DNA of 63,454 nt, filler included, from Licmophora abbreviata (lineage: Eukaryota): the NCBI GenBank assembly GCA_900291995.1. It is 14 parts of 14 records of this genome, joined end to end, with 100 filler letters (N's around TTAATTAATTAA, not from the genome) between each part and the next. Parts side by side here need not be neighbours in the genome. Positions count along the whole stretch, not along the records: positions 14,105 to 17,107 come from OLMU01005903.1; 13 more parts are not named here. One strand, written 5' to 3'. A program made the translations under genes and the position numbers. Below, piece after piece: positions 4,201-52,000 of the stretch. The notes below the pieces were generated by a model that was not told the origin of the DNA, did no database searches, and saw nothing but the letters and a program-made list of their open reading frames with translations. The stretch's first letter is position 1, and each line of letters starts with the position of its first letter.

Positions 4201-5068
4201 AGAGTCCTTTTCTGCCAAAGAGGAGCGCGTTCGGTCGAGATCGGCCTACGGGTCACATCCTGGCTGGCGCTTACTGCCGATTCTGATCAAGTCAAACGAC
4301 GACCTTCGCCAAGAGCAGCTTGCCTCCCAGCTAATTTATCGCATGGCAAGTGTCTTGGCGCGTGAGAAGGTCCCGGTGTGGCTCTGCGCCTACGAGATTG
4401 TCGCCATGACGGATCGCGGCGGGATCATCGAGGCTATTCCAGACACTATATCGCTAGACTCGCTCAAGCGGAACGATCCTAACTTTACAAGTCTAAGCGA
4501 CTTCTTCCGTCGACATTTCGGAGAGCCAGGGAGCGACGATCATGCCGACGCAAAAGCGAGCTTTGTGGAGAGTCTCGCAGCGTATTCGATGGTTTGCTAT
4601 CTGCTTCAAATAAAGGATCGCCACAACGGAAATATTCTCGTCGATAACCATGGCCATCTGATTCACATTGACTTCGGATTCTTCTTCTTGTCTTCGCCGG
4701 GCAAAAACTCTGGCTTCGAAAGTGCCCCATTCAAATTGACCCGTGACTTTGTCGATCTCATGGATGGGCCTGACAGCCGCACCTTTCGTACCTTTCGGGA
4801 GCTGTGCTGTCGAAGTTTCTTGTCGCTTCGTCGACACTGGTATGAAATAATCATTCTGGTGGAGATGCTCATGGTCGGCAATGAAGACCTACCGTGCTTC
4901 CGCGGGCGTCCAGAAGACGCCGTCAAAGGCCTTCGGGAGCGGTTCCGACTGGACTTGAATGATCGCGCTTGCACTGAATATGTTAACGCGTTGGTGGACG
5001 ACAGTCTAGAGAACTGGAGGACTCGATGGTACGATCGATACCAGAGGTACTGTGTGGGCGTTCTCTAA
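1293..5068 (+). CDS. PI4KB: Phosphatidylinositol 4-kinase beta (type III) with hydrophobic N-terminal extension; exons ~1293-1410, 1549-2166, 2265-5068
   Basis: Motifs FYVPQL (helical domain), STKERVP, IKSNDDLRQEQLA, YLLQIKDRHNGNIL, HIDFGF and FESAPFKLT. GT-AG introns 1411-1548 and 2167-2264 join the three ORFs in frame. Confidence 0.9.
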
Positions 5069-5332
5069 GTTGGTCGCTAGGTATGGCTTGGACGCTTTGT
5101 GGAGGCATATTGCGCTAAGCATTTATTCTGTACAATAGCTGCTAGTCAAATCTCATGGTTGTCGACGTACCAGTACCTGGTGCCGCAAACTCAAAGGCGT
5201 TGCCCCCCAACAAACTCTGAAATGCAAGTGTAGCCAAGTCCCTCGTTCTTGTGACGCTGCTGCTCGTCACCACAGCTCTGACTAACAAAACGAGACGATA
5301 GTAGAAAGTACTTTGATACGCGAAGTCAAGCG

Positions 5333-6906
5333 TCAAACCTTGTGTCTACTTGTGACAGGCGCGGTTGGATATCCAAGATACTTGATGGCTTCAGCGATCG
5401 CTGTGCCGAGACAAATGGGAACTGCGTTGCCAATCTGCTTTCGTTTCTCTGTCATGCTTCCACAAAGTACGAACGAATCGGGAAACGACTGGATCCTGGC
5501 TAGTTCTCGCACAGTAACGTTTCTCTGACGAGAGTAGTGTGTCACACCCTTTGCAGTCCGTACCGTACGTGCTGGCACGTTTCGCGAGAGGACGTCGCTG
5601 CCGCCTTTTAGGCCTGCTGCGTCTATACCATGATCCTCGATAAGCACATCTCCCAAACACACAAGCCCGCTTCCAGTTTCAGGCTCAACGTCCTCAAGGT
5701 CACGGAGAGCAGCCTCGGGGGTGACGTACGGCTTGAGTCCTTCTCCATGGGTCGCCTTGGGAAATTCGGGCAGCTGTATCCCGGGCTTGGCGAGCAGCAG
5801 GAAAACACGCGGTCTATGCTGAGGGTCACCAAGGTCCGAGGCTCTGAGAATGCCAGCGCGAGCTTGATAGCCGGCTTCCATAACTATTCTTGCAATAAGC
5901 TTGTCAAAGTAGTTTACATGTTGATCTCGCAACATCTGAATTATCAAGCGCGCACGAGCGACAAGGAGTGAGCAAGGTTAGCCATGTAGCGTCTATGTTT
6001 TTTGTGTCGACGTACCCCGGTAACGTTCTCGAACGACGCTGTGAGTGGATTGAAAAACTTGATGTACTCGATCAAGACGAAACACAACATGTTGTTCGTT
6101 TCATCATTTGCTCCTCCGCTAATATTCGCATCCGAGAAGCCTTGCGAAAGAGATCCGCAAAGGTGGAGTGAACGGGGGTGTATCAGACAATATGCGACTT
6201 GAGAGAGAGACGTACCGTTACAAGGTGATGATGAATGGATGTGATCGATATCGCCGGGCTTTGGATACATGCCATACCTTGGGTCGCCCGCGTAGCCGAG
6301 TTTGCATTTGGCAAGGAAATCCCACACATCGTCTTCAAACACCTGTGTATGCATGTGTCCCTTTTTCAACAAATTCAATCTATGCGAGTCCGCCGCGTGG
6401 CGGTTCTTCTCAACTATCCACTTGACGTTGAAGTAGTTCGACTGAGCGAACGCATGTGAGATTCCTTCGCAGCCCGCAAATATGTCGAGCATAGTCGGTT
6501 GTCGGTGGTCGGGAGTCTTTTCCTTGGGCTCTCGAATCTTGTAGGACGCCTCCCATCCGACGGCGCTCTTGCCCTTCTTGGATCCTGTCTCCCACATGAT
6601 GGGTCGTTCCAACATCGCCGGCGGCTCCGTTCGGTTGTCAAGATCACTGAGCCTGATCTCCTCTGTATGACGCAAAAACACATAGAAGTCGACACCTTCT
6701 CGTTTGATACCACTCTTCACCTTTGTGTCGAAGAGCGTGTCGCTGAATGGAATAGCAACTTCACACTCCGCAGTCTTTTTCTTTCTGTTTCTCAAGAGCT
6801 TTCGAATAACATAACTCGCCTTGTTCTCGACATGTGCGGGAACGATATTCTGCTTGCACAACTTCCAGGCACGCTTCCGGGAGGTATACGCCTCGCCCAG
6901 ACAGAA
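5333..6906 (-). CDS. C5-cytosine DNA methyltransferase, RID/DNMT4-like; 5' end truncated by gap; introns 6141-6215 and 5936-6015
   Basis: After splicing the motifs fall in canonical order: I LDIFAGCEG, IV HIHSSSPCNGFS, VI FENVTG, VIII QHRPRVF, IX RELARIQSFPD, X QIGNAVP. The frame is open up to the gap. Confidence 0.88.
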
Positions 6907-11077: not shown

Positions 11078-11338
11078 CAGAGAGAACGGCAGCGTGAGTT
11101 CAACTTGGTGGGGAACTTTGAAAGTACTCTCCGGATTCAAGCCGCAGTTGTTGCCTTGTCTTTGGCCTTCGTCTTGTATATAGGGGCCTCTGGGGGTATA
11201 ACGAGTGGGTCGGAACGAGACTTTGGAGGATACGATGAAATCGGTGCTGTCAACCAGGTTTACTTTTACGACGACAAAGATCCAGTACCATCGCAGCAAC
11301 AAACGACTCCAAGTGATAGTGCTGGCGTGTGGCTTTAG
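11078..11338 (+). CDS. 3' fragment of a small membrane protein (copy 1); 5' truncated by gap
   Basis: Open frame from the contig edge: QRERQREFNLVGNFESTLRIQAAVVALSLAFVLYIGASGG...AGVWL*. One hydrophobic helix; near-identical in copy 2. Confidence 0.55.
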   Translation, partial: QRERQREFNLVGNFESTLRIQAAVVALSLAFVLYIGASGGITSGSERDFGGYDEIGAVNQVYFYDDKDPVPSQQQTTPSDSAGVWL

Positions 11339-11773
11339 AAGATCCCACGCCAATAACACCTTGTTGTATACTCTCACAGATTGAACATGCATTCCCTGAC
11401 CATGCTACACCCGATACTCATACATAGCTATGAGATGAGACATCACAACTAGAAACACGACACTGCCCGCGCTCAGCTGTCAATGTATTTCTTAGCTAAG
11501 TTGACGATCGATTGCGCTCCTCCAACCATTACACTGATGCGTCCAGCAACTCTGACTTGTTATAGCGGTACCGTATGGTAGCGGCGTTGAAGCCTAGAGC
11601 GACACATTGTCGTTCTAACATAGATTTGTAATTGCTGCTCAGCCTTCATTCTTGAATTGTCTATATGCATTGTCCTTGCGTCGCATGGTCTCGAATGCCT
11701 GACATATCTTAACTAAAAAACTCTAGAGGGTTGCTTAGCCTATCGCACCATCAACATGCCAGCAAGCAAAGAG

Positions 11774-13179
11774 TCAGCGCAATTCCTTCTCTGCAGCCAT
11801 CCGTGGGGAAAGATGACACCGAATGTGCCCCCCTCCGTCCATCGGGTAGGTGATCTTCATGGGGAAGCCACGCTGCATTCCAATTGTTACAACACTACTC
11901 ACAGGGACGGCCTTGGCACATTCCAACAAGTCCTCCGGGGAAAATGTCTGAGAAAACTTGGGGGCATTCGGGTTCTTAGATTCAATTTCAATGCGGCCCC
12001 CCACACGGAAGAGAACTCCACCTCGTACTACATCACAAGGATCCATATATCCACTGTTTTCCACGTCGAATCGAACCCCTTCGTGGGATAGTGTGATCGA
12101 AATCCAGCTGTACTTGATTGTTTGATGCAAATCCCTCGAAGTCTTTCGAAACAAGGATGAGGGCATTTTAGCAACAATGGTACTGTCACCATGGAGTTCA
12201 ATTTCATTGATACCCTGCAAATTATAAGGGTAGGCGAGAACCAACGCAAAACTAGCCGGTACTTTGTCTGGAAATCTGGTATTCTCAAACTCAACCTTCA
12301 GAATTTTTTTCGAAGCTCTCGCTGTCATCGTATCTGTCTTTCTCGCCGTTTTTGTTTGAAATGATAGACTTTCCAAGTCTTCCGACGACAGGGATAGAAA
12401 CACTGGCTTAGAGCTTGGCGATTCCACAGCATAGTGATCAAACATACTCCGTGGTAGGTTATACTCAAGAGTTCCGAGCGTGTGCGTCTCTTGGACGGTG
12501 ATTCCAGTCTGCTCGCATCGAAAGACGCAGCTCTCCAAGAACATGTCCATCAAGTACGCCATGACATGGAACCTTCTAGGATCCTTCAGTCGAAATTCCA
12601 CACGAGTGTCTCCAACCCTCGACTTAAGACGCTCCCGCTGTCGTCTCCAATACGACGACTTGTCGGTAGCCTGGCAGTGCTCCTCCCACTTCTTGCAGTC
12701 TCGCACAGGCACATCGCATACGTAGCAGTAGCAAAGGTGACAAGTCTGGAGGTGTTTTAATGCTTGCTCTTGCCGCTGTCTTGTTTGTCATCGTCATCGT
12801 CAAGACAAATCTCTTCGGGGCCATAAGGATGGACAGTGCAGTGCTGTCGCATATGCGGCAGTTCGTAGGCTCCCCGAGTTCCCACCACTTGGACCGCATC
12901 GGGATCAGTCGTTGTGCTACTAGTTGTAGTTTCTTGGGCGTTGTGTTTCGAAGCCTTCTCCACGTTTTCAGGGCTGGCTACTACTAGCGAAGACGACTCC
13001 CCACCAGGGACAATCTCAACATCGCTGTCGTTTCCGTCGGCGCTCGTCTTATCCATTCCGGCCATGTCACTGCTGCTTCTGTTCGTAGTGGAAAGCGGCG
13101 ACACCGCCGCTGGAGCGCCGCCATTCAGCTCTAATTTGATCTTCTTCGACGCCGTTTCCTCCGTACCACTGTTCATCAT
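11774..13179 (-). pseudogene. Cys/His-cluster-PCNA-like fusion gene, copy 1; frame broken at ~12752-12759
   Basis: Colinear with the intact copy 2. CAT-CAAAAT-CTC in copy 2 is CAT-TAAAACAC-CTC here, an in-frame TAA plus a +2 shift, giving ORFs of 140 and 312 aa. Confidence 0.75.
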
Positions 13180-13480
13180 GCTAATAGAAGGCTGAATTCT
13201 TATTGAGGCGATGATAAAAGACGAAAGAGCGCCTCAACAAGGTGGGCGACTCGACAGCATCCCCGTGAACATGATCACCGTCATCGCGTTGTCGTATCGA
13301 AATGGGAAACGTAAGTTTGGAATTTGTAATGTTCCCAACTTTTCTCATGTGATCTGTCCCAAAGACTGCTACGAGTAACGGTTTTTTGTTGTTTTACTTT
13401 TTCCCACAGTCTCTCATCACACACATTGCACACACATCACATGCCAGGCGATTGCATTCAAAATCTTTTCATTTTCATTC

Positions 13481-14004
13481 ATGTCGGAAACAGCGGAAGA
13501 TAAGGAGAAGAGGCTTGCGCTAAACCTCAGAAAGAAGCGAGAACGGCAACGGAGAGAAGCAGCAAAGAAAGAGCGACTGCTGGAAAAGAAAAAGAAAACC
13601 AACCGGCAAGCAGCCATTCGTATGCGTCGATATCGGCTCAACAAGAAAGCCCAGGGCGCAATACTGTCAGATGAAACACCTTCTAGTACAGACGCCCCGA
13701 CGACAACTCCATCCTCTACCACCTCACCTTGGCCGACTTGCAGGGTGCCATGGCCGGACTCGCGACCGCCTCTCCCACGCCAACATCGGGCCCGCCCTTG
13801 AGTGACGTTGTCACGCCGGCAAGTATCACCGAACTGCTTGAAAGCGATAGTATCAAGTCCCGATTGATGCAGTTGCTGCCTCCGGACAACAGACCGAAGA
13901 GTACTTGGAAGAAAACTTGAGATCGCCTCAGATTCAATCTACGCTTCGAACGCTCACGCAGATTCTGCTTCCGGACGATGCGGGGTCGCTGGAAGGCTAT
14001 CATT
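13481..14004 (+). pseudogene. RPN13: Frameshifted fragment of the proteasome subunit Rpn13/ADRM1 C-terminal (UCH37-binding) region, preceded by a K/R-rich ORF
   Basis: LADLQGAM...PPLSDVVTPASITELLESDSIKSRLMQLLPP, then a frameshift near 13887, then QQTEEYLEENLRSPQIQSTLRTLTQIL. No N-terminal Pru domain. A second shift lies near 13722. Confidence 0.6.
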
Positions 14005-14104: not shown

Positions 14105-14365
14105 AAGAGAGAACGGCAGCGTGAGTTCAACTTGGTGGGGAACTTTGAAAGTACTCTCCGGATTCAAGCCGCAGTTGTTGCCGTGTCTTTGGCCTTCGTC
14201 TTGTATATAGGGGCCTCTGGGGGTATAACGAGTGGGTCGGAACGAGACTTTGGAGGATACGATGAAATCGGTGCTGTCAACCAGGTTTACTTTTACGACG
14301 ACAAAGATCCAGTACCATCGCAGCAACAAACGACTCCAAGTGATAGTGCGGGCGTGTGGTTATAG
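14105..14365 (+). CDS. 3' fragment of a small membrane protein (copy 2); 5' truncated by gap
   Basis: Near-identical to 11078-11338. Confidence 0.55.
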   Translation, partial: KRERQREFNLVGNFESTLRIQAAVVAVSLAFVLYIGASGGITSGSERDFGGYDEIGAVNQVYFYDDKDPVPSQQQTTPSDSAGVWL

Positions 14366-14661
14366 AACAAGATCCCACGCCAGCCGTAAACACCTTGTTG
14401 TATACTCTCACAGATTGAACATGCAGTCTCTGACCATGCTGAACCCGATACTCATACATGGCATGACGTGAGACATCACAACTAAGAATACGACACTGCC
14501 CGCGCTCAGTTGTCAATGGATATCTTATCCAAGTTGACGATCGCTTGCGCTCCTCCCACCGTTACACTGATGCGTCCAGCAACTCTGACGTGTCATAGTG
14601 GTACCGTATTTAACTCTAAGGTTGATTAGACTCTTGTACCGGCATGCCAGCAAACAAAGAG

Positions 14662-16056
14662 TCATTGCAATTCCTTCTCTGGAGACATCCGTAGGGAAAG
14701 ATGACACCGAATGCGCCCCCCTCCGTCCATCGGGTAGGTGATCTTCATTGGGAAACCACGTTGCATTCCAATTGTTACAACACTACTCACAGGGAAGGCC
14801 TTGGCACAATCCAACAAGTCCTCCGGGGAAAATGTCTGAGAAAACTTGGGCGCATTCGAGTCCTTAGATTCAATTTCGATGTGGCCCCCTACACGGAAGA
14901 GAACTCCACCTCGTATTACATCGTAAGGATCGACATGTCCACAGTTTTTCACGTCGAATCGAATCCCTTCGCTGGATAATGTGATCGAAATCCAGCTGTA
15001 CTTGATTGTTTGATGCAAATCCCTCAACGTCTTTCGAAACAAGGATGACGGCATTTTAGCAACAATGGTACAGTCACCATGCAGTTCAATTTCATTGATA
15101 TCTTTCAAAGAAGGGTCGTCGAGAAGTATCGCAAAACTAGCCGGTACTTTGTCGGGAAATCTGGTATTCTCAAAGTTAACCTCCAGAATATTGTTCGAAG
15201 CTCTCGCTGCCATCATATCTGTCTTTCTCGCCGTTTTTGTTTGAAATGATAGACTTTCCAAATCGTCCGATGACAGGCATAGTTGTACCGGCCTAGAGCT
15301 TGGCGATTCCACAAGATAGTGATGAAACATGCTCCGTGGTAGGTCATATTCCAGAATTCCGAGCGTGTGCGTCTCTTGGATGGTGATTCCAGTCTGCTGG
15401 CAGCGCATGACGCAGCTCTCCAAGAAGGTGTCCATCAAGTACGCCATGATATGGAACCTTCTGGGATCCTTCAATCGAAACTCCACACGAGTGTCCCCGC
15501 CCCATGACTTGAGACGCTGCCGCTGTCGTCTCCAATACGACGACTTGTCGGTAGCCTGGCAGTGCTCGGGCCACTCCTTGCAGTCTCGTACAGGCACGTC
15601 GCACACGTAGCAGTAGCAAAGGTGACAAGTCTGGAGATTTTGATGCTTGCTCTTGCCGCTGTCTTGTATGTCGTCATCAAGACAAATCTCCTCGGGGCGA
15701 TAAGGATGGACAGCGCAGTGCTGTCGCATATGCGGCAGTTCGTAGGCTCCCCGAGTCCCCACCACTTGGACCGCATCTGGATCACTGGTGCCACCACTAG
15801 TAGTACCTTGGGCGTTGTATTTCAAAGCCTCCTCCACGTTTTCAGGGCTGGCGACTACTAGCGAAGACGACTCGCCTCCAGTGACAATCTCAACATCGCT
15901 GTCGTTTCCGTCAGCGCTTGTCTTATTCATTCCGGCCAAGACACTGCTGCTTCTGTTCGTAGTGGACAGCGGCGACACCATCACCGATGGAGCGCCGCCA
16001 TTCGGCTCTAATTTGATCTTCTTCGACGTCCTTTCCTCCGCACCAGTGCTCATCAT
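14662..16056 (-). CDS. Intronless 464-aa fusion: NLS/SIM-like N-terminus, Cys/His-rich cluster and divergent PCNA sliding-clamp domain
   Basis: LPHMRQHC...CHLCYCYVCDVPVRDCKEWPEHCQA, then VEFRLKD...KMPSSLFRKTLRDL...EGIRF...KAFPVSSVVTIGMQRGFPMKITY...GRIRCHLS. This is colinear with PCNA ([52 protein letters not shown]). Start set at ATG 16056 by comparison with copy 1. Confidence 0.85.
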   Translation of the reverse strand: MMSTGAEERTSKKIKLEPNGGAPSVMVSPLSTTNRSSSVLAGMNKTSADGNDSDVEIVTGGESSSLVVASPENVEEALKYNAQGTTSGGTSDPDAVQVVGTRGAYELPHMRQHCAVHPYRPEEICLDDDIQDSGKSKHQNLQTCHLCYCYVCDVPVRDCKEWPEHCQATDKSSYWRRQRQRLKSWGGDTRVEFRLKDPRRFHIMAYLMDTFLESCVMRCQQTGITIQETHTLGILEYDLPRSMFHHYLVESPSSRPVQLCLSSDDLESLSFQTKTARKTDMMAARASNNILEVNFENTRFPDKVPASFAILLDDPSLKDINEIELHGDCTIVAKMPSSLFRKTLRDLHQTIKYSWISITLSSEGIRFDVKNCGHVDPYDVIRGGVLFRVGGHIEIESKDSNAPKFSQTFSPEDLLDCAKAFPVSSVVTIGMQRGFPMKITYPMDGGGRIRCHLSLRMSPEKELQ

Positions 16057-17207
16057 GCTACTAGAAGGCTGAGTTCCTATTGAGGATGTGATGAAAGACG
16101 AAAGAGTGTCTCGACAAGGTGGAAAACTCGACAGCGTCCCCTTGAACATGACCACCGTCGTAACGTCGTATCGAAATGGGAAATAGGAAATGGGAAATGC
16201 AGTTTGGAATTTGGAATGTTCCAAACTTTTTCATCTTCCCGAGAGACTGCCAGGACCACCGGTTAGCTCGAAGGTATAGAAGAAGCGGTATCGTAATACG
16301 CAGACGCCACTCTTCCAAGATACGTCGTCTGTTTGAAGATACAAAGGCTTCCACTAACCAGGACTAGCTCGTAACATAGAAAACTGCGTACTATCACATA
16401 TTCACCGTAGCTAGCAAAAGGTCGATATTGATCCTCCCCCGCCCGGTGCAAAGCACCCATGCAGCCCATGCGGGATATGCGTCTTGATTCAGATTTTGCA
16501 TACAGGTCCCTCTTTTAGTTTTTTCCAAACCAGTAGACATCGACATCCGTATTCGCCTCTCCTTGCTTGAGTTCCACCGTACTTGTATCTTGAACGCGTA
16601 TTCGTACGTATCTGTTGGGCGGCGACAAGTCGCCCACGACATTGGAAGCAACAGCATAGACATGCTGTGCTTGCTTCGTAGCGAACTGCGGGTGCACGAC
16701 GCAGTGGCTGCTTCAAACACACATTCGATGCACCCGGTGCAATGGTCGAAGCTAGAGGCGACGTGCGTCGAGTCCTAGAGCAAGTCGATACACTTCTTGT
16801 TTCTACATAGTAATCTTCCGTCACACCTTGCGCCAGTCTTCGATGGACTTGTGCACAATATGACTTTTTTTTTGTTGGTTAGGTACGGCCGGTTGAAAAG
16901 GCCACTAGAGAACGAGTTGATGGCTAGTGCCGTTGCCAAGGAGTTGGATGGCGTGTGCCAGCGTACATTCCGGCATAAGGCGAACACCGAGTGTATAGAT
17001 TTCGCTAAAGGAACAGAGTGGTCGTGAAGTTTTTATTGATATATAAATACCAATATGGAAAGTCATATTGAATATAGAGAGCCAATCATCTCAGACTGAC
17101 TCGACTCNNNNNNNNNNNNNNNNNNNNNNNNNNNNNNNNNNNNNNNNNNNNTTAATTAATTAANNNNNNNNNNNNNNNNNNNNNNNNNNNNNNNNNNNNN
17201 NNNNNNN

Positions 17208-43689: not shown

Positions 43690-46600
43690 CTATTTCGCAT
43701 CGTACCATGTCTTGTGAGCCCATGATCCGTCCACAAGCAAAGGTACTTTGGTCGGTTCAAGCCCAAAAGTCCATGGTTCTTGCATGCAATCGACTACCAC
43801 CTCAAACGCTTCTTCCGCAGTCTCTTCAGGTCCTTCCAAGATGACTTCATCATGAATTTGCATCAGTAATATCCAACCGAGACGTTTCAGCTTGTCGTTG
43901 TCGTTGATCTTATTCATAGCCATCATGGCGACGTCCGCGGCCCCGCCTTGAATCGGAGTGTTGATGCTTGCGCGTTCCGCACCCGCAATCATTCTGCGGG
44001 TAGTCGGTGGCACAGCATCGGGAAGTTGACGATACCGCCCCATGAGCGTACGAGTTATCCCATATCTGCGCGCATATGCTTTGGTGTCTTTCTGCCACTT
44101 TTCGACTTCCGGACGCGCGTCGTACCACGCCTGCAACATTGCCTCCGCCTCTTCCCGCGACACACCCCAGTCCAGGCTCAACCCATGAGCCGTCTTTCCG
44201 TACGCAATGGAAAAGTTCAGCGTCTTGGCTTTGCGTCGCTCTGATGCAAACTCATCCTTCAAGAGTGGCTTGGGTGGATCGCCGTTGGTGTAGTCCCACT
44301 CCAGCAGACACTCCCCAGCATCGACCTTCTCCTTTACATAACCAAACATGTCGAGGGCGGTTCTCGAGTGAAAGTCCCCTCCGGCTGCGAAGGCATCAAT
44401 CATGGACTTGCACCCTGTCATACTTGCCAAGAGCCGCAGTTCAAGCTGCCCGTAATCGGCCACAATCAGATTGTTTCCAGGCGACGCCTGAAACGCCTGT
44501 CGGATCTTGTACTTGTCCTTCTCGAGAGCTGGCTGGTTTTGTAGGTTTGGTCGACGCGATGACAGCCGACCCGTCTCAGTGTTGAGGTTTAATGAGCAAT
44601 GGACTCGGCTTTGTTCATCCGCGAGCGACTGAAGACTCGTGATGAAGCTGCCAATCATTGTATCAATGGAGCCGACAGAACAAAGGCTGAACAATGCCTC
44701 GCAAGCCTTGCGGCCTCGCTCTCCCCCACCGAAGAATTCGTAAGCCTAAGCGTGGGCGGCAGAAGATAAGCAGACGCTAGTTAGTGATGCGACCCTGATC
44801 GGTGCGTCACATCTCAAGCACCATTCAACAGTGTACGTACCGTTCCGTATTTTGGATCGTCCCCCAGCGGATCACCTGCCAGCTTCCTGATCACGTCGGC
44901 CGTCACGCTGGCTGCACCACCCGCCGTGTACTTTTCTGGTGTCATACCGATGCTTCGGATAGTGACTTCGACATATTTTGGCTTGGCTTCAGCCTTCTCC
45001 TTGAGTTCCGCTAGGATCTCGGAGATTGCTCCACCGTCGCTTTTGGCAGCGGCCTCGAGCGCTTCGCTGATCGTCTTGTAGCCGTCGCTGTCTCTCGGCG
45101 ACGACACAGACAGCAACTCGCATGCGTAAGCACTGTCTTCCCTCAGACGATCTAAAAGCTGTTTTCGCTTGCCAGTGTCCTTGAGGCCTCTAGCCTTACA
45201 AGAATCTCGCAGGTCTTCTTCGCTCATGGCCTCGTAGTCGTCCTGCGGCGTGCCATCCTCAGCGCTGACATTGCTTGCCAAAAAGTGCCCCCGCAATCGT
45301 TCTTGCAACTCTGCTTTCTTCCCCGACATCTTGAGTCCCCTCTGTTTGCAGAGCGCCTTTAACTGCGATGCTTTCATATGGTCAAAATCGTCCGTCTCAG
45401 TTTCGACTGGAGGAAATGAATCAACGAGGGAAGACAGGAGACGCGAGTCAGCTTGTGCGGGTGAAACAACAACGGACCTTCCTACACCCCCAAAAGGGCG
45501 GTCTTTTTACCTGACTTGGCATCCGGGTTTGCTTGATGCTGTTCATCTCGCTGTCGATACGCTTCAATAGCTTCATCAGGGATCTCTTCTCTTGGCACCT
45601 TTAATACTCTCTCCTTTTCGGTCGGTTCTTTCGTCTTCGCATTCTCTGCCCCTCCAAATAGAAAGGTAGTCAACTGAAGCGAGCTTGCCGGATTTAATGC
45701 CAGTCCATCTGGGCCGATCATAGTCTGCGCCCACTCCCGAAATACTCGCACATGATGTGCTCGATCTTCACGCGCTTGCACCTCGACATTGGCCAAGTAG
45801 TTTCGCGCATCGACACGAATCCCCCGTCGCTCCATATCCGTCAAGACTTCCCCAAACTTGCGCATGTGCATATCATAATAGTCAAAGAGGTTCTTTCCAG
45901 GCTTCCAGGGCATACGTTCCAGTCGTCTCTGTAGCTCTTCTCGCAACAACCATGTCCCTTCGGCGTCGTAGCATGAGTACATGATCCAATTCTTTCGATG
46001 CTTAGGATCGCGTTGCATGACTTCGATGGCAGGAAGATCCACCAAACTACCAGCGGTCCCGTCCTTTCGCAATCGGGGCACACCGAACAATTCCTTCATG
46101 GGCTTCTTGCGACGTTCTAGCAAATCATCTGTCAGCGCCTCCAAGGAATACCCCATGGCTGTAGTCCGTTTCAATCTCGATGTATCTTGCAGTCTTGCCA
46201 TGTGCATGGTATCTCCCGCAAAGCCCCGTACATTGATCCCTTCATTCCACATGACATGTCGATCAAAGCCATAATTGTGCCACACTTTAAGAAATTTCTC
46301 ATTTTCGAACCACTCCTTGAACTCATTGAGAACACCAAAGGCATCGTCCAGATTGTCAATCCACAAAGTCATCCCCGGCCCGTCCCCATAATCAAAGTCT
46401 GGTCCACTGTAGATACTAGCACACGTGACATAGCCATTGCCCACGGGACCGAGGTTCTTCAAGTCAATCTCCATGACTTCAGTATCACAGGCATGAATAG
46501 TCTCCGGCGGAGCTTGGTTCAACAATTCGATGACCTTGCGCGCATGTTCGCGAGTGCGCACCTGGGTGACGCGGGGAATGGGCGTGGCGTCCACTTCAAA

Positions 46601-47227
46601 GTATCCCTCATCACCAGGCTTGAGCTGGAGGAGAGGTTTGAGGTGTTCCCACATGGCGTCGCTGCGCCGACCAAAGGACTCGGCCCACTGGAGTGGATTG
46701 CGAACGTTCCAGTTCTTCTTGGGTCGACTCTTGAGGCCTTTTAGAAGAAGTTCATCGTCGTTGTCGTCATTTGCGTTACCATCGACATTGACTTGGCGAC
46801 TTGCCGATTTCGGTGTTGTAGTGTCGCTCTCTTCGTAATAGAGAGCAGCGGTAGTTGTGTCGTCAGTGTGCATGATATCTGTGTCATTGTGGGCGACTGC
46901 CGCAGCCGCTGCATCCGAAAGGGCGGAACGAACCTGCAGCGCATGATACGGATGCCAGGAACGTGATGGTGACTCCCGTCGACGTAGTAGTGACAGTGAT
47001 GAAGGATAAAATCCTGGACGGGCTTGACCGTACTGTTGTCGTTGTTGCTGCTGCAGTGTTCGGGCGGCAACAGCCGCGGTACTGCGGCGAAGCATTGCTG
47101 TGTTGCTTGTGGTAGTTCTGTAGGTAGACGTAAAGCCACTTGTCGTTTTAAAACAAACACTACAGATCAACAGTACAGAGGACAACCAAGAGGATAGTAG
47201 GAGTCGGGACGACGACGTCGTCGTCAT
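43690..47227 (-). CDS. POP: Organellar family-A DNA polymerase (POP) with 3'-5' exonuclease and two inserted SAP domains; introns 45407-45510 and 44746-44840
   Basis: Exonuclease motifs HACDTEV, VWHNYGFDRH and YSCYDAE. Polymerase motifs TETGRLSSRRPNLQNQP, ADYGQLELR, ERRKAKTLNFSIAYG, NTPIQGGAAD and QIHDE. Confidence 0.93.
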
Positions 47228-49014: not shown

Positions 49015-52000
49015 TCAATGCGGCGACGAGAAGTCAAGCATAGTGGCTCGTAGAAGGTGCCACGGAAACTCCGGGAAGAATTCATTCATCACGCCCACAA
49101 TCTGGTGCCAATAGCTGATCTGGCAGGCATGGTGCTGCTCAAAGAAGACGTACACGGCTTCCTTTGACCAATTGGTGTGATAATCGCAAACAATCATGCC
49201 ATACTGCTCCAAGGCGCGAAACACTGTTGTTACCTCAGACGGTGCGTCTTCGGTGAGCGGGCTATTGGTAAGGAACTGGAAGTGCATGCCGCGAGGCAGC
49301 TCTCCCGCCTTGTCTTTATGCACGCTCAAGCAAATCGCATGCTGCACAGCAGCATAGTTGTTGAGCTCTTCGAGCTGAATCATACCGACCGGGGAGAGTT
49401 GAGGAGCTACGTCTTCGACGTGACCAATAGTCTCACTTTGCTTCTCCACAATCAACGCCTCCTCTGCTTGCCAGCTCGTCACACCGCGACTTTGCCTCAG
49501 CGGGCGAATGTTGTGGAATGCCCACAATGTATCTGTGTGTTTCTCTAGCACAACAAGACGAGGGACAACGATGTGTGACTCTACCTTGCCCGCTACGGGT
49601 GGCAGGGGTGCCAAAACGACGCTCTCATTGTGTTTGCCGTCACTGCGAACAAACACACGTGATAGCTCCGCATCAGAGTCGGCGGATACAATCTCGACTC
49701 CGTAGAAATCTGACTCGAATCTGAAGTTCCACGGTCTATCTGATGGATGATCTTGATTGAGCTCCGCGGATTTCGTGAGCTGGCTTAGTAGCGTGCGAAC
49801 TAGTAGGGGTGACTGAGGATGTATGAGTGCATCATCCTCCGAAAGCGTGCGATTTTCAAAGAACCGAGACAAGGGCGAGAGGAACGGATAGGTGGAGCTA
49901 GAGAAGTGATGCGTGTGGACATGTACGACCTCGCCTGTCCAATCCACGACGCGCAACTCGAGCACGTGATCGCCCGGCAAAAAGTCCTGGGGAATCAGAC
50001 GCATGGGGAATGGCACTTCCCACAAGAGAGTCAGCAGATGACCATCAAGATAGGCCTCAACAAGCATTGGATTACGTGGTTCGATCGTCGCGAATAATGT
50101 AGCGGGCTCCGTCAGCACTGACATTGATGGCGTCAGATGCAAACTCCACTCTGACGCCACGTCGTCTGCAATGAGCCCCGCCTTTTTTGCGACCTTCATC
50201 GCATTGGAGCTCAAGGTCATGTTCTTATTCACGACATTTCCATCTCTGGGATGAATCCTTNNNNNNNNNNNNNNNNNNNNNNNNNNNNNNNNNNNNNNNN
50301 NNNNTTAATTAATTAANNNNNNNNNNNNNNNNNNNNNNNNNNNNNNNNNNNNNNNNNNNNATTTCCATCTCTGGGATGAATCCTTCCTTCGTTTTGATTT
50401 AACGCTCTGGTGCTGCCTGCGCTCTTTTGCTCCTGTAACGATCGGAGGACACGATTGAGATCCAAAGAGAGACGTCTCACTTCCGTTTGCTGAATAAGTG
50501 GCGCAAAGTCTTCGGCTCGGTGCACCAACGACCGCACCGTCTCAGCAAAGTCGCACGGGTCGTCACAAACCACGATATCCAAAAGCTCTGTGGCGGGACC
50601 AAATTCTTGATTGAGGGCATGTACACCAGAGGAAGTGCTCACCATAGGCAAGCCAGAGCCACTCATTGCCACATTCATCGCCAATTGAAACACACTCGCT
50701 GACGCGTGTACTGGCATTGGGTTAATGAACACCAGTGGACTGCCTGTGCTATTCTGCACCAATGCAGCGAGATCTGCATCCAACACTGGAATAAGACCAG
50801 CTTTAGAAGCCATGTCCGCAATGATACTCTCCAAGTTGTCATGTGTTTCATTGCCAACGAGAAATAACTGTGTCGGTTGACGCGCAGTTGTACCAGAGCG
50901 GCTGTCGACGTGGAGTGGGCACGACTGCCAAGCCTTGGTGAACCAACGCATCGACTCTATATCAGATCCGGCGTAAACGATGCCTTCTGCCTCAGCTGCC
51001 GGAAGGTCCTGCTTTTTCAGAAGAGACAGTGTGACGTTGGACACTGACGACCGGGGAGTGCCAGCAAGCGCCGCCGTAAGTTCCATCGCCACAACACCCA
51101 TGTCTCCTACATGGCACAAATGATCGACTTGGAGAATCGCGAGACGACGACTTGCGTCCCATTCTTCGGAAAGGAGCCAGCTGTCATCATACATCACCAA
51201 CACGAAGTCGACACTGGGGCCCAACAGGTACCGTAGACGCTCGGCCAGCAGCGGCAAGCCTACACATCGTGGCTGCATAGAGTGGGTGGAGAGCGTGGCG
51301 AACACGAGATCGACCTGCTCAAACATTTGTCTCGGTATGTCCACAAGCTCCACAAAGACAATGCCTAGTCGACCATCCCGACCAGCCGTGTTGGCGACAG
51401 TTTCTGTCACGTATACGACGTCGATCCCGAGATCGAGCAACGCCTGGCTTTCGTCCACACCAGTGCACGCATTCAGACGGCCAAACACTGGCAGGATTTG
51501 GTGCCCAGCCTCACGCAATGCCACCATTATCCCGTAAACGTGCAAGTCTTCCGCAGAATCAAAGATGCACGGGAAGTGCTCATGGGCTACAATAGTAAAG
51601 CCCTCTCGTTGAATAGGCAAGAACGTATCCAAGCGCTGGCTCAGAGCCGAGCTAGCAATCATTGGAGGATGATACTGCCCAAGCCAAGTTGCCTCTCTGC
51701 TGACGTCCGTTTTCTTCATACCATGCATTTCTTCGGCCGCCTCCGTTCTGATCATATCGCGCATCTCCCCCGTCATCTGCTTACGCCAACGATCCGAATC
51801 TTCCATCTGCGAGACGAATCTCAAGGCGCTCGTGTCAAACACGCCCCCGGCACATCTAGGAGTGTTGAAAAGCATGCACTCACTCAGAGACTGCCTCCAA
51901 GCATCTTCCGGGTGCGCCATCGCCGAGACAGCGAATGACCTCGACTGGCGCTGCCGCAGCTCGTGATACTCTGGACAAGAGCGCGTCACATAATGTCCAA

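Follow-up and report, generated by a model that had tools for sequence, protein, structure and literature searches.

A predicted RIN13_N-PCNA fusion protein from a marine microbial eukaryote bin: a candidate clamp-like adaptor with a targeting head

The window considered here, meaning the whole stretch of DNA that was analyzed, comprises 63,454 nucleotides, filler included, from the Licmophora abbreviata assembly GCA_900291995.1 and consists of 14 contigs, separated by spacers of the form N44-TTAATTAATTAA-N44. The focal gene, P0001, is found on the contig at 14105-17107, which is only 3 kb long, derives from a low-coverage metagenome bin and harbors no other complete gene. The ORF listing and the translation both give a minus-strand reading frame that is unbroken over 464 codons, as originally predicted. 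An alternative upstream ATG at 16149 would generate a product of 495 amino acids; the 464-aa start is favored because the extension is stopped in the second copy and is without a counterpart in homologues. This second copy, referred to as copy 1, lies on the contig at 11078-14004, and a tblastn search of the window with P0001 returned these two copies only. The features of the two loci, among them the sequence motifs quoted in the original prediction, all of which lie at the coordinates checked, are as follows.

14662..16056, minus strand: P0001 coding sequence, complete, 464 aa plus stop, with a RIN13_N head and a PCNA-like body
16006..16026, minus strand: SKKIKLE, NLS-like basic patch, aa 11-17 (alignment A2), a putative nuclear import signal
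15883..15903, minus strand: SIM-like motif 1, DSDVEIV, aa 52-58; family consensus DDDEVxIVxxPP
15757..15777, minus strand: SIM-like motif 2, DAVQVVG, aa 94-100, preceding LPHxR at a constant spacing
15517..15744, minus strand: RIN13_N-type Cys/His module, aa 105-180 (alignments, Atlas, precomputed PF27679 in homologues)
15124..15489, minus strand: PCNA-like domain 1, aa 190-311 (phmmer, AF2, Foldseek, alignment)
15067..15123, minus strand: interdomain connector, aa 312-330, diverged from the canonical loop (AF2, alignment)
14698..15066, minus strand: PCNA-like domain 2, aa 331-453 (Pfam PCNA_C, AF2, Foldseek)
14971..14973, minus strand: Ser362, aligned to PCNA Lys164 (alignments)
11774..13179, minus strand: copy 1, broken by a TAA and a 2-nt insertion, on the separate contig 11078-14004

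The two copies that had been reported are present, with the qualification that each has its own contig in a metagenome bin, and that one of them is broken. As spacers separate these contigs, neither adjacency nor a shared genome is established for P0001 and copy 1, and an early reading of the two as a tandem duplication was rejected. A look-up of sequencing runs for the focal locus listed no RNA run, giving instead seven low-share DNA-type runs from three studies, one of them guessed to be RNA. Four runs placed on 14105-17107 assembled into short contigs with a depth of about 2-7, and this same-locus placement provided neither joints nor transcript evidence.

The C-terminal half of the protein is related to PCNA. 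A Pfam scan of P0001 detects PCNA_C over aa 328-453 (E 2.6e-8; 34.5 bits, with the cut-off at 23), and PCNA_N, which is recognized in relatives, gives no match even at E<=10. Against the PDB, phmmer finds 74 distinct sequences at E<=10, the best being 6qh1 (5.8e-7); among the 60 matches listed, 59 are eukaryotic PCNAs and one is an archaeal sliding clamp. These alignments bring aa 209-461 of P0001 into register with PCNA residues 21-258. An AF2 model of aa 186-464 has a pLDDT of 87 and a pTM of 0.86, and its top Foldseek matches in the PDB are all PCNA, led by human PCNA (4d2g, E 6.1e-20, TM 0.80/0.86). Sequence and model together indicate that the region from about residue 186 to residue 464 adopts the two-domain fold of a PCNA clamp protomer, bearing out the prediction of a divergent PCNA behind an N-terminal Cys/His module. 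We also considered whether the body could instead be a subunit of a 9-1-1-type checkpoint clamp, akin to Rad9, Hus1 or Rad1, rather than a PCNA derivative. One relative, P0006, does have a marginal Rad9 match in Pfam (25.4 bits against a cut-off of 25), but the same protein matches PCNA_N (64 bits) and PCNA_C (48 bits) much better, the Rad9, Hus1 and Rad1 models find no match in P0001, where PCNA_C is the only clamp family matched, and the Foldseek list contains PCNAs throughout. This origin is consequently regarded as very improbable.

The N-terminal half encompasses a cysteine- and histidine-rich module, LPHMRQHC...CHLCYCYVCDVPVRDCKEWPEHCQATD, within aa 105-180. Its invariant or nearly invariant residues are P108, H109, R111, H113, C114, C144, C147, C149, C152, D153, C159, W162, H165 and C166. 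Across 143 aligned sequences C147, C152 and H165 are invariant, and P108, H109, R111, C114, C144, C149, D153, C159, W162 and C166 are at least 90% conserved. Homologues of P0001, with E values down to 1e-32, carry precomputed matches to PF27679.1 together with PF00705 and/or PF02747. PF27679, a family of Pfam 38.1, is named RIN13_N by the Atlas, and the Atlas clusters nearest to the head are likewise RIN13_N (0.85, 0.79 and 0.77), the best of these falling below the tool's 0.9 mark; an Atlas search with the whole protein gave no usable match. This indirect evidence places the head in the RIN13_N family, in agreement with the resemblance to plant RIN13-like proteins that had been proposed at first. 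In a full-length AF2 model built from the 143-row alignment, pLDDT reaches 88-98 over aa ~100-185; the body is poor in this model, with a mean pLDDT of 52. Searches for the RIN13_N fold among solved structures, VIA-wide and by Foldseek with the full-length model, returned noise only (best Z 3.6, best E 0.58). ZMAT2, which appeared when an A3 profile was run against the PDB (E 0.016, YCxVCD stretch only), was dismissed as chance or low complexity. No RING family is found in P0001 by the Pfam scan at E<=10, and on our reading the Cys/His spacing of the module is not that of a RING. A biochemical function for the RIN13_N domain was not found in the literature searched.

Upstream of the module lie shorter motifs. 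A K[KR]xK-type patch occupies the place of SKKIKLE in about 12 of the 19 rows of alignment A2. P0001 has two SIM-like motifs, both acidic-flanked, and its relatives have 2-4. Counted per protein, 16 of the 19 A2 rows have 2-4 such motifs, where shuffled sequences have 0.4-1.2; of the remaining three rows, one is without the LPHxR anchor and two are N-terminally truncated. Their positions are conserved across the fusion family. Many family members also contain a VIDLT motif, which P0001 does not. SIM-like motif 2 is conserved across the wider RIN13_N set at a constant spacing from LPHxR, and it may be a structural strand of the RIN13_N domain rather than a SUMO-binding motif.

The combination of this head with PCNA is not confined to one contig. 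Of the 714 matches, the best 150, taken as cluster representatives, were all Pfam-scanned, and 17 are head-PCNA fusions: 15 have PCNA_N and/or PCNA_C, and P0003 and P0011 were added because they align into the PCNA half. The other domains found with the head in this best 150 are SNF2 (13), PDZ (2), HMG box (1), WW (1) and RanBP zinc finger (1). The head thereby also occurs on DNA-acting effectors, namely Rad5-like SNF2 ATPases and an HMG-box protein. One of the SNF2 proteins, P0045, is from the diatom Cylindrotheca closterium and has RAD5 as its best PDB match (3.8e-43; the next match is at 2.2e-28). Each of the 18 fusion clusters whose source was traced (P0001 and 16 of the 17 representatives) comes from a metagenome or transcriptome assembly, and P0152 is an MMETSP transcript that carries the fusion. 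The architecture clearly recurs in independent assemblies and in one transcriptome. Two word-index searches for relatives gave 5 and 8 matches, all of them fusions, and another led to two canonical PCNAs. Among the fusions, mean identity is 52% in the head core and 19% in the PCNA half; by this measure the head is more strongly conserved than the body. A maximum-likelihood tree, composed of 19 fusion rows and 2 canonical PCNAs, is star-like, with 8 of its 18 inner branches unresolved; in it P0007 is joined by P0001 and copy 1 (support 99/98), and the two canonical PCNAs fall together.

It had been suggested that no described protein has this architecture. No paper on a RIN13_N-PCNA fusion was found in the literature searched, so that part of the claim stands, but at least 17 cluster representatives were already in the databases, some of the family's entries being auto-named 'PCNA'. 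The fusion is accordingly known to databases and common to a small family of uncultured protists, and is apparently not yet studied. The description of the locus as a candidate new system is not supported: P0001 is one gene, made up of two Pfam families that are already known, and not a multi-gene system. A further possibility is that the gene is not cellular at all but belongs to a giant virus, or is a virus-derived PCNA, caught in the bin. The short contig, with no other complete gene, is compatible with this, some viral PCNAs are long, and viral PCNAs are nearly as close in structure as cellular ones (BFVD best 2.3e-18, PDB best 6.1e-20). Against it, none of 33 pattern matches among 2.9 million viral contigs was confirmed as a relative, an ORF for a eukaryotic AGC-type kinase adjoins the locus of one relative, and the fusion and its head are found in the MMETSP transcript and the diatom nuclear protein, respectively. 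A viral source is thus highly unlikely.

Several of the residues through which canonical PCNA operates are altered in P0001. The position of the acceptor lysine, K164, is taken by Ser362, and by His in copy 1, as had been proposed, and the alignments agree that divergence extends to the interdomain loop and to the YLAPK motif at the C-terminus, a [YH]L[AS]P-like motif being partly kept. Lysine is nonetheless retained at this position in 7 of 19 aligned rows, and the term 'non-ubiquitylatable' therefore fails for the family as a whole. A rough tally that uses no coordinates gives the four predicted inner helices of P0001 a net charge of -3, as compared with +3 and +1 in two canonical PCNAs and -1 to +6 in the other fusions; the value for copy 1 is -5, and for the nearest relative, P0007, +6. 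The loss of Lys164 and of net positive inner-helix charge is, on these alignments and counts, evident in P0001 specifically. Its pI is 6.5, against 4.5-4.8 for canonical PCNA, and its identity with one canonical PCNA is about 21%. At the alignment columns assigned to the PIP-box pocket, P234 and L250 are kept and M40 and Y133 are replaced by Thr.

These residues bear on whether the protein could be a true alternative clamp, loaded onto DNA as a homotrimer or as a mixed ring with canonical PCNA, with the head directing it to SUMO-marked sites or holding it there. The complete two-domain fold would allow this, most fusions have net positive inner helices, and the family keeps basic residues at DNA-facing positions 13 (K/R/H in 16 of 19 rows) and 217 (18 of 19). 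However, the inner helices of P0001 itself are net negative, and the canonical subunit-interface strands are altered in the family, with E113 changed to Pro in 12 of 19 rows and S177 to Arg or Lys in 17 of 19. A homotrimer prediction with three copies of aa 186-464 scored 0.00 and, having been run without an alignment or controls, weighs neither way on ring formation. An encircling clamp appears, from these models and alignments, to be quite unlikely.

Copy 1 allows the selection on the gene to be estimated. It is interrupted by a TAA at 12757-12759 and, shortly after it in the direction of the gene, by a 2-nt insertion that parts the two halves of the Cys/His module; these lesions leave ORFs of 140 aa and 262 aa. 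The X3 contig, from an independent run, matches copy 1 across the insertion, its 13-letter loose end being identical to a copy-1-specific string. Between P0001 and copy 1 the dN/dS ratio over the whole gene is 0.47 (Fisher p 6e-5); the zinc module alone gives 0.20 (p 4e-4) and the PCNA half 0.54 (p 0.011). With a ratio as high as 0.54 for the PCNA half, copy 1 broken, Ser at K164 (His in copy 1) and the positive inner-helix charge lost, the PCNA body could be decaying in the P0001 lineage rather than doing something new. The fusion family would then be real and P0001 a paralogue that is losing its function on the way to a pseudogene. Such an outcome is possible but improbable, since the ORF of P0001 is whole over all its 464 codons, dN is significantly below dS both overall and in the zinc module, and AF2 predicts a confident PCNA fold for the body.

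The explanation that we prefer, with a rough probability of 55%, is that P0001 is a real gene from the nucleus of a marine microbial eukaryote and encodes a protein of a small family, so far unstudied, whose members join a targeting head to a complete but fast-evolving PCNA-fold body to give a clamp-like adaptor. The targeting head would be made up of a basic, NLS-like patch, from two to four SIM-like motifs with acidic flanks, and a zinc-binding RIN13_N module, and would bring the protein to chromatin or to repair proteins, most plausibly ones that are SUMO-modified. The PCNA-like body would then not be a replicative, ubiquitin-regulated sliding clamp but an adaptor or platform on which other proteins dock, and we infer a function that is SUMO-directed and non-replicative.

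A bolder and distinctly tentative reading is that the RIN13_N head and its SIMs form a portable module for reading chromatin that bears SUMO or some other mark, a module which marine protists would place on varied DNA-acting effectors and which, on a PCNA body, would give a 'reader clamp'. Such a protein could join canonical PCNA in mixed rings, or compete for PIP-box clients where forks have stalled, and the rapid divergence of its body might stem from co-evolution with these clients or from a conflict with viruses or transposons. If true, this would turn the established relation around, since there it is PCNA that bears the SUMO mark and its partner that carries the SIM.

To our knowledge, PCNA is among the most conserved of eukaryotic proteins and as a rule carries no additional domains. 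Its repeated fusion to a SIM-bearing zinc module, the latter also heading Rad5-like ATPases, in a family found in ecologically important marine algae, would offer a handle on what the widespread and uncharacterized RIN13_N module binds. It would also offer one on whether non-model eukaryotes use specialized, targeted clamp-like platforms in DNA-damage or SUMO signaling. As a named diatom has a head-SNF2 protein in the databases, experiments look feasible.

Among known systems, eukaryotic PCNA (PF00705/PF02747) shares with P0001 the two-domain beta-clamp fold of ~270 aa, colinear over residues 21-258, and the fusion family partly keeps some of its DNA-facing basic positions and its C-terminal motif. 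P0001 differs in its 185-aa N-terminal head, its Ser at K164, its diverged loop and its acidic inner helices, and its family differs in evolving fast, as the low mean identity of the PCNA half reflects. RNF4 and Slx5 are poly-SIM proteins, and the SIM of PIAS is VIDLT; they have in common with the head the acidic-flanked V/I-x-V/I-V/I motifs and, in many family members, VIDLT itself. P0001, unlike RNF4 and Slx5, has no RING, and ubiquitin-ligase activity is therefore not expected. RIN13 is RPM1-interacting protein 13, an interactor of a plant resistance protein. It and other RIN13_N proteins exhibit the same LPHxRxHC...CxxCYCYVCD...C..W..HC.A[TS]D module with a preceding acidic V-x-V-V motif, but RIN13 is without a PCNA domain. 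Finally, the Rad5/Ris1(Uls1)-type SNF2 ATPases include proteins that bear the same SIM-like and RIN13_N head (the 13 noted among the best 150 of 714 matches), whereas the effector of P0001 is a clamp fold and not an ATPase. Uls1/Ris1 carries SIMs and Rad5 ubiquitylates K164 of PCNA, and the presence of the head on Rad5-like ATPases links it, by association, to DNA damage tolerance and SUMO-related machinery.

The focal gene encodes P0001, a 464-residue protein in which a Cys/His head of the RIN13_N type precedes a PCNA-like body. It is established that the gene is real, that its product is a RIN13_N-PCNA fusion, and that this fusion belongs to a protist family. An ATG located farther upstream, at 16149, would add 31 residues; the added stretch meets a stop in the sequence of the second copy, a broken homologue also termed copy 1, and the homologues start near the shorter site in a 19-row alignment, so the 464-residue form is preferred. 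The motifs quoted in the original prediction are all present, and their coordinates were verified by translation. The relevant features are as follows.

Features of the focal gene, its second copy and the remaining pieces of the window
14662..16056, minus strand: P0001 open reading frame, 464 codons, no interruption
Residues 11-17 of P0001: SKKIKLE, NLS-like
Residues 52-58 of P0001: DSDVEIV, SIM-like
Residues 94-100 of P0001: DAVQVVG, SIM-like
Within residues 105-180 of P0001: Cys/His cluster
11777-13179, on a different contig from the P0001 gene: second copy, located by tblastn
14105-14365 and 11078-11338, plus strand: final 86 codons of a convergent ORF that has a hydrophobic, TM-like stretch
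13481-13801, plus strand: 106-aa ORF, upstream of the broken copy only
Other window pieces: PI4-kinase, Hsp70, Sec6, GOGAT and a RAP domain protein, as long single ORFs

The window contains 13 identical spacers at sites 6907 to 57123, each composed of 44 N, TTAATTAATTAA and 44 N, with the central string providing stops in all six frames; splitting at the spacers yields 14 pieces of 1.1-12.2 kb. Since, in addition, marine metagenomes were the only sequencing runs in which a search placed the P0001 stretch, the window is made up of concatenated contigs from one bin and is not a single molecule, and gene adjacency across the spacers is therefore uninformative. The other pieces carry ordinary eukaryotic genes. 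A string of about 25 letters ends one contig and begins the next on either side of the spacer at 50261-50390, and from this overlap the two could probably be merged. A single contig harbors, at 43690-47227 on the minus strand, one ORF with a family-A DNA polymerase domain and another with a 3'-5' exonuclease domain, which may be an organellar POP-type polymerase interrupted by an intron or a frameshift.

The head had been likened to plant RIN13, and this link is correct as far as the Pfam family goes. Precomputed matches to PF27679.1, which the Atlas names RIN13_N, are found on both close and distant homologues of P0001, and the Cys/His pattern is conserved. For residues 85-190 the three nearest Atlas clusters are also RIN13_N, with scores of 0.85, 0.79 and 0.77, which all lie under the tool's 0.9 mark and so constitute a lead rather than proof. 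Across a 143-sequence alignment C147, C152 and H165 are invariant, and P108, H109, R111, C114, C144, C149, V151, D153, C159, W162, C166, A168 and R179 are at least 90% conserved. AF2 models residues ~100-185 with a pLDDT of 88-98. No solved relative of the head emerged: the best VIA-wide match had a Z of 3.6 and fell on unrelated helices, the best Foldseek E was 0.58, and a profile search of the PDB gave ZMAT2 alone, at E 0.016; these misses say nothing firm about the RIN13_N fold.

The C-terminal half was predicted to adopt a clamp fold, and its fold is that of PCNA. Pfam PCNA_C matches residues 328-453 (E 2.6e-8, 34.5 bits against a cut-off of 23), while the same scan reports no PCNA_N match for P0001. 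A phmmer search of PDB sequences gave 74 distinct sequences at E<=10, and the 60 matches listed comprise 59 eukaryotic PCNAs and one archaeal sliding clamp; the best has an E-value of 5.8e-7, and the alignments extend from residue 209 to 461 against PCNA residues 21-258. With the 19-row family alignment as input, AF2 modelled residues 186-464 at a pLDDT of 87 and a pTM of 0.86, with the expected strand/helix pattern seen twice. Foldseek of this model against the PDB listed PCNA in all rows, led by human PCNA 4d2g (E 6.1e-20, TM 0.80/0.86, rmsd 2.5). That P0001 is a 9-1-1-type subunit is highly improbable, all listed Foldseek matches being PCNA. Viral PCNAs in BFVD match the model nearly equally well (best 2.3e-18), so the fold by itself cannot separate a cellular from a viral origin; none of 33 pattern matches in a scan of viral contigs was confirmed as a relative, and a viral source for the gene appears very remote.

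Database searches show that the architecture recurs in a family. Searched exhaustively with phmmer, 1.84 billion representatives yielded 714 matches at E<=1e-3, 117 of them at E<=1e-10, and the best 150 of the 714 were all Pfam-scanned. Within these 150, PCNA_N and/or PCNA_C lies behind the head in 15, and P0003 and P0011, two further relatives with no Pfam match, align with P0001 deep into the PCNA half, giving 17 fusions. The head is joined to SNF2 ATPase domains in 13 of the same 150, to PDZ in two, and to an HMG box, a WW domain and a RanBP-type zinc finger in one each; the remainder have no other Pfam domain. One head-SNF2 protein, P0045, belongs to the diatom Cylindrotheca closterium; among solved structures it is closest to RAD5 (3.8e-43, with the following match at 2.2e-28). 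Eighteen fusion clusters were looked up, namely 16 of the 17 representatives together with P0001, which is itself absent from the collection; their sources are only metagenome, Logan, ENA or MMETSP, and some bear the automatic name 'proliferating cell nuclear antigen'. P0152, an MMETSP transcript, covers both head and body, and so supports the junction at the transcript level for a relative but not for the organism of P0001. In metagenome contigs, 43 loci with the head were found, two of which continue into the PCNA half. At one of these, L001, a 788-aa ORF that we read from its sequence as an AGC-type protein kinase adjoins the fusion gene, which is split at 4621-5939 into ORFs of 314 and 125 aa; an intact 440-aa form, P0005, occurs in another assembly, and the split is thus a broken variant of a second family member or an assembly error.

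The 19-row alignment gives a consensus that runs from a basic K[KR]xK patch through VIDLT, DDDEVxIVxxPP, DDVQVVGTxNxxxLPHMRxHC and CxLCYCYVCDVPxKDCxxWxxHCxATD to the PCNA body. In the 16 scorable rows each protein has 2-4 acidic-flanked SIM-like cores, against 0.4-1.2 in shuffles; P0001 has two and lacks VIDLT. A V-x-V-V motif directly upstream of LPHxR is conserved throughout the 143-sequence RIN13_N set, and may belong to the domain itself instead of being a free SIM. The fusions share, as a pairwise mean, 52% identity over the head core and 19% over the PCNA half, so that constraint falls mainly on the head and the body diverges fast with its fold kept.

The contigs of the two copies are colinear over ~2.2 kb, with 88% identity across the gene and 93% downstream, where both carry the end of the convergent ORF with two residue differences, far better conserved than the adjacent fusion gene. 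They share a homologous first base and diverge ~170 nt upstream of the ATG. These are therefore homologous loci, and may be alleles, strains in one bin or paralogues. The 106-aa ORF, whose N-terminal half is very basic and Lys/Arg/Glu-rich, has no Pfam match at E<=1e-4 and does not align to the equivalent flank of the intact copy. Copy 1 bears a CAA to TAA change as well as an insertion of 2 nt that falls between the halves of the Cys/His module. In another study, one contig terminates in a 13-letter string exclusive to the copy-1 form, which hints weakly at a genuine lesion. Gene decay in this lineage would account for such damage but is unlikely. Between the copies, dN/dS (Nei-Gojobori, one-sided Fisher) is 0.47 overall (p 6e-5), 0.20 in the zinc module (p 4e-4), 0.65 in the first 95 residues (p 0.17) and 0.54 in the PCNA half (p 0.011). 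Neutral evolution of the pair is ruled out, and constraint on the body is modest.

The family, as 19 rows made up of 18 fusions and the C-terminal ORF of copy 1, was compared with two canonical PCNAs, P0159 and P0160, the latter matching human PCNA at ~1e-103 and colinear with yeast PCNA residues 1-258. P0001 is ~21% identical to P0160, and its body has a pI of 6.5 as opposed to 4.5-4.8 for canonical PCNA. As predicted, Lys164 aligns to Ser (Ser362) in P0001 and to His in the second copy; Lys occupies this position in 7 of 19 rows. The DNA-facing basic positions are unevenly kept, with K/R/H at position 217 in 18 of 19 rows, 13 in 16, 80 in 12, 146 and 210 in 10 each, and 149 in 3. On strands that we take to be the subunit interface of canonical PCNA, E113 is replaced by Pro in 12 of 19 rows and S177 by Arg/Lys in 17. 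The four predicted inner helices carry a net charge of -3 in P0001 and -5 in the second copy, as against -1 to +6 in other fusions and +3 and +1 in the canonical pair. P0001 is thus a derived member of the family that lacks two hallmarks of the working clamp, both of which its nearest relative, P0007, possesses. A true alternative ring on DNA would fit the retained fold and position 217, and is improbable given the inner-helix charge of P0001; the body in its lineage probably does not work as a ubiquitin-regulated, DNA-sliding clamp.

We favor, with a probability of about 0.55, a targeted docking platform linked to DNA damage tolerance and SUMO, in which the head would act as a portable targeting module and the PCNA body as the platform. 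The head looks portable because it is the conserved part, includes SIM-like motifs together with a basic patch, and recurs with DNA-acting partners, especially Rad5-like ATPases. Since Rad5 polyubiquitylates PCNA at K164 and SIMs are present in its relative Uls1/Ris1, the pairing with such ATPases suggests a link to DNA damage tolerance and SUMO signalling. That SUMO is the head's actual ligand is a tentative suggestion. The full-text literature, as distinct from subscription journals and database architecture pages, yielded no papers on RIN13_N biochemistry or the RIN13_N-PCNA fusion. Both halves are known Pfam families, and fusion proteins already reside unnamed in databases, so P0001 represents a new combination of familiar parts, not a system of a new kind.
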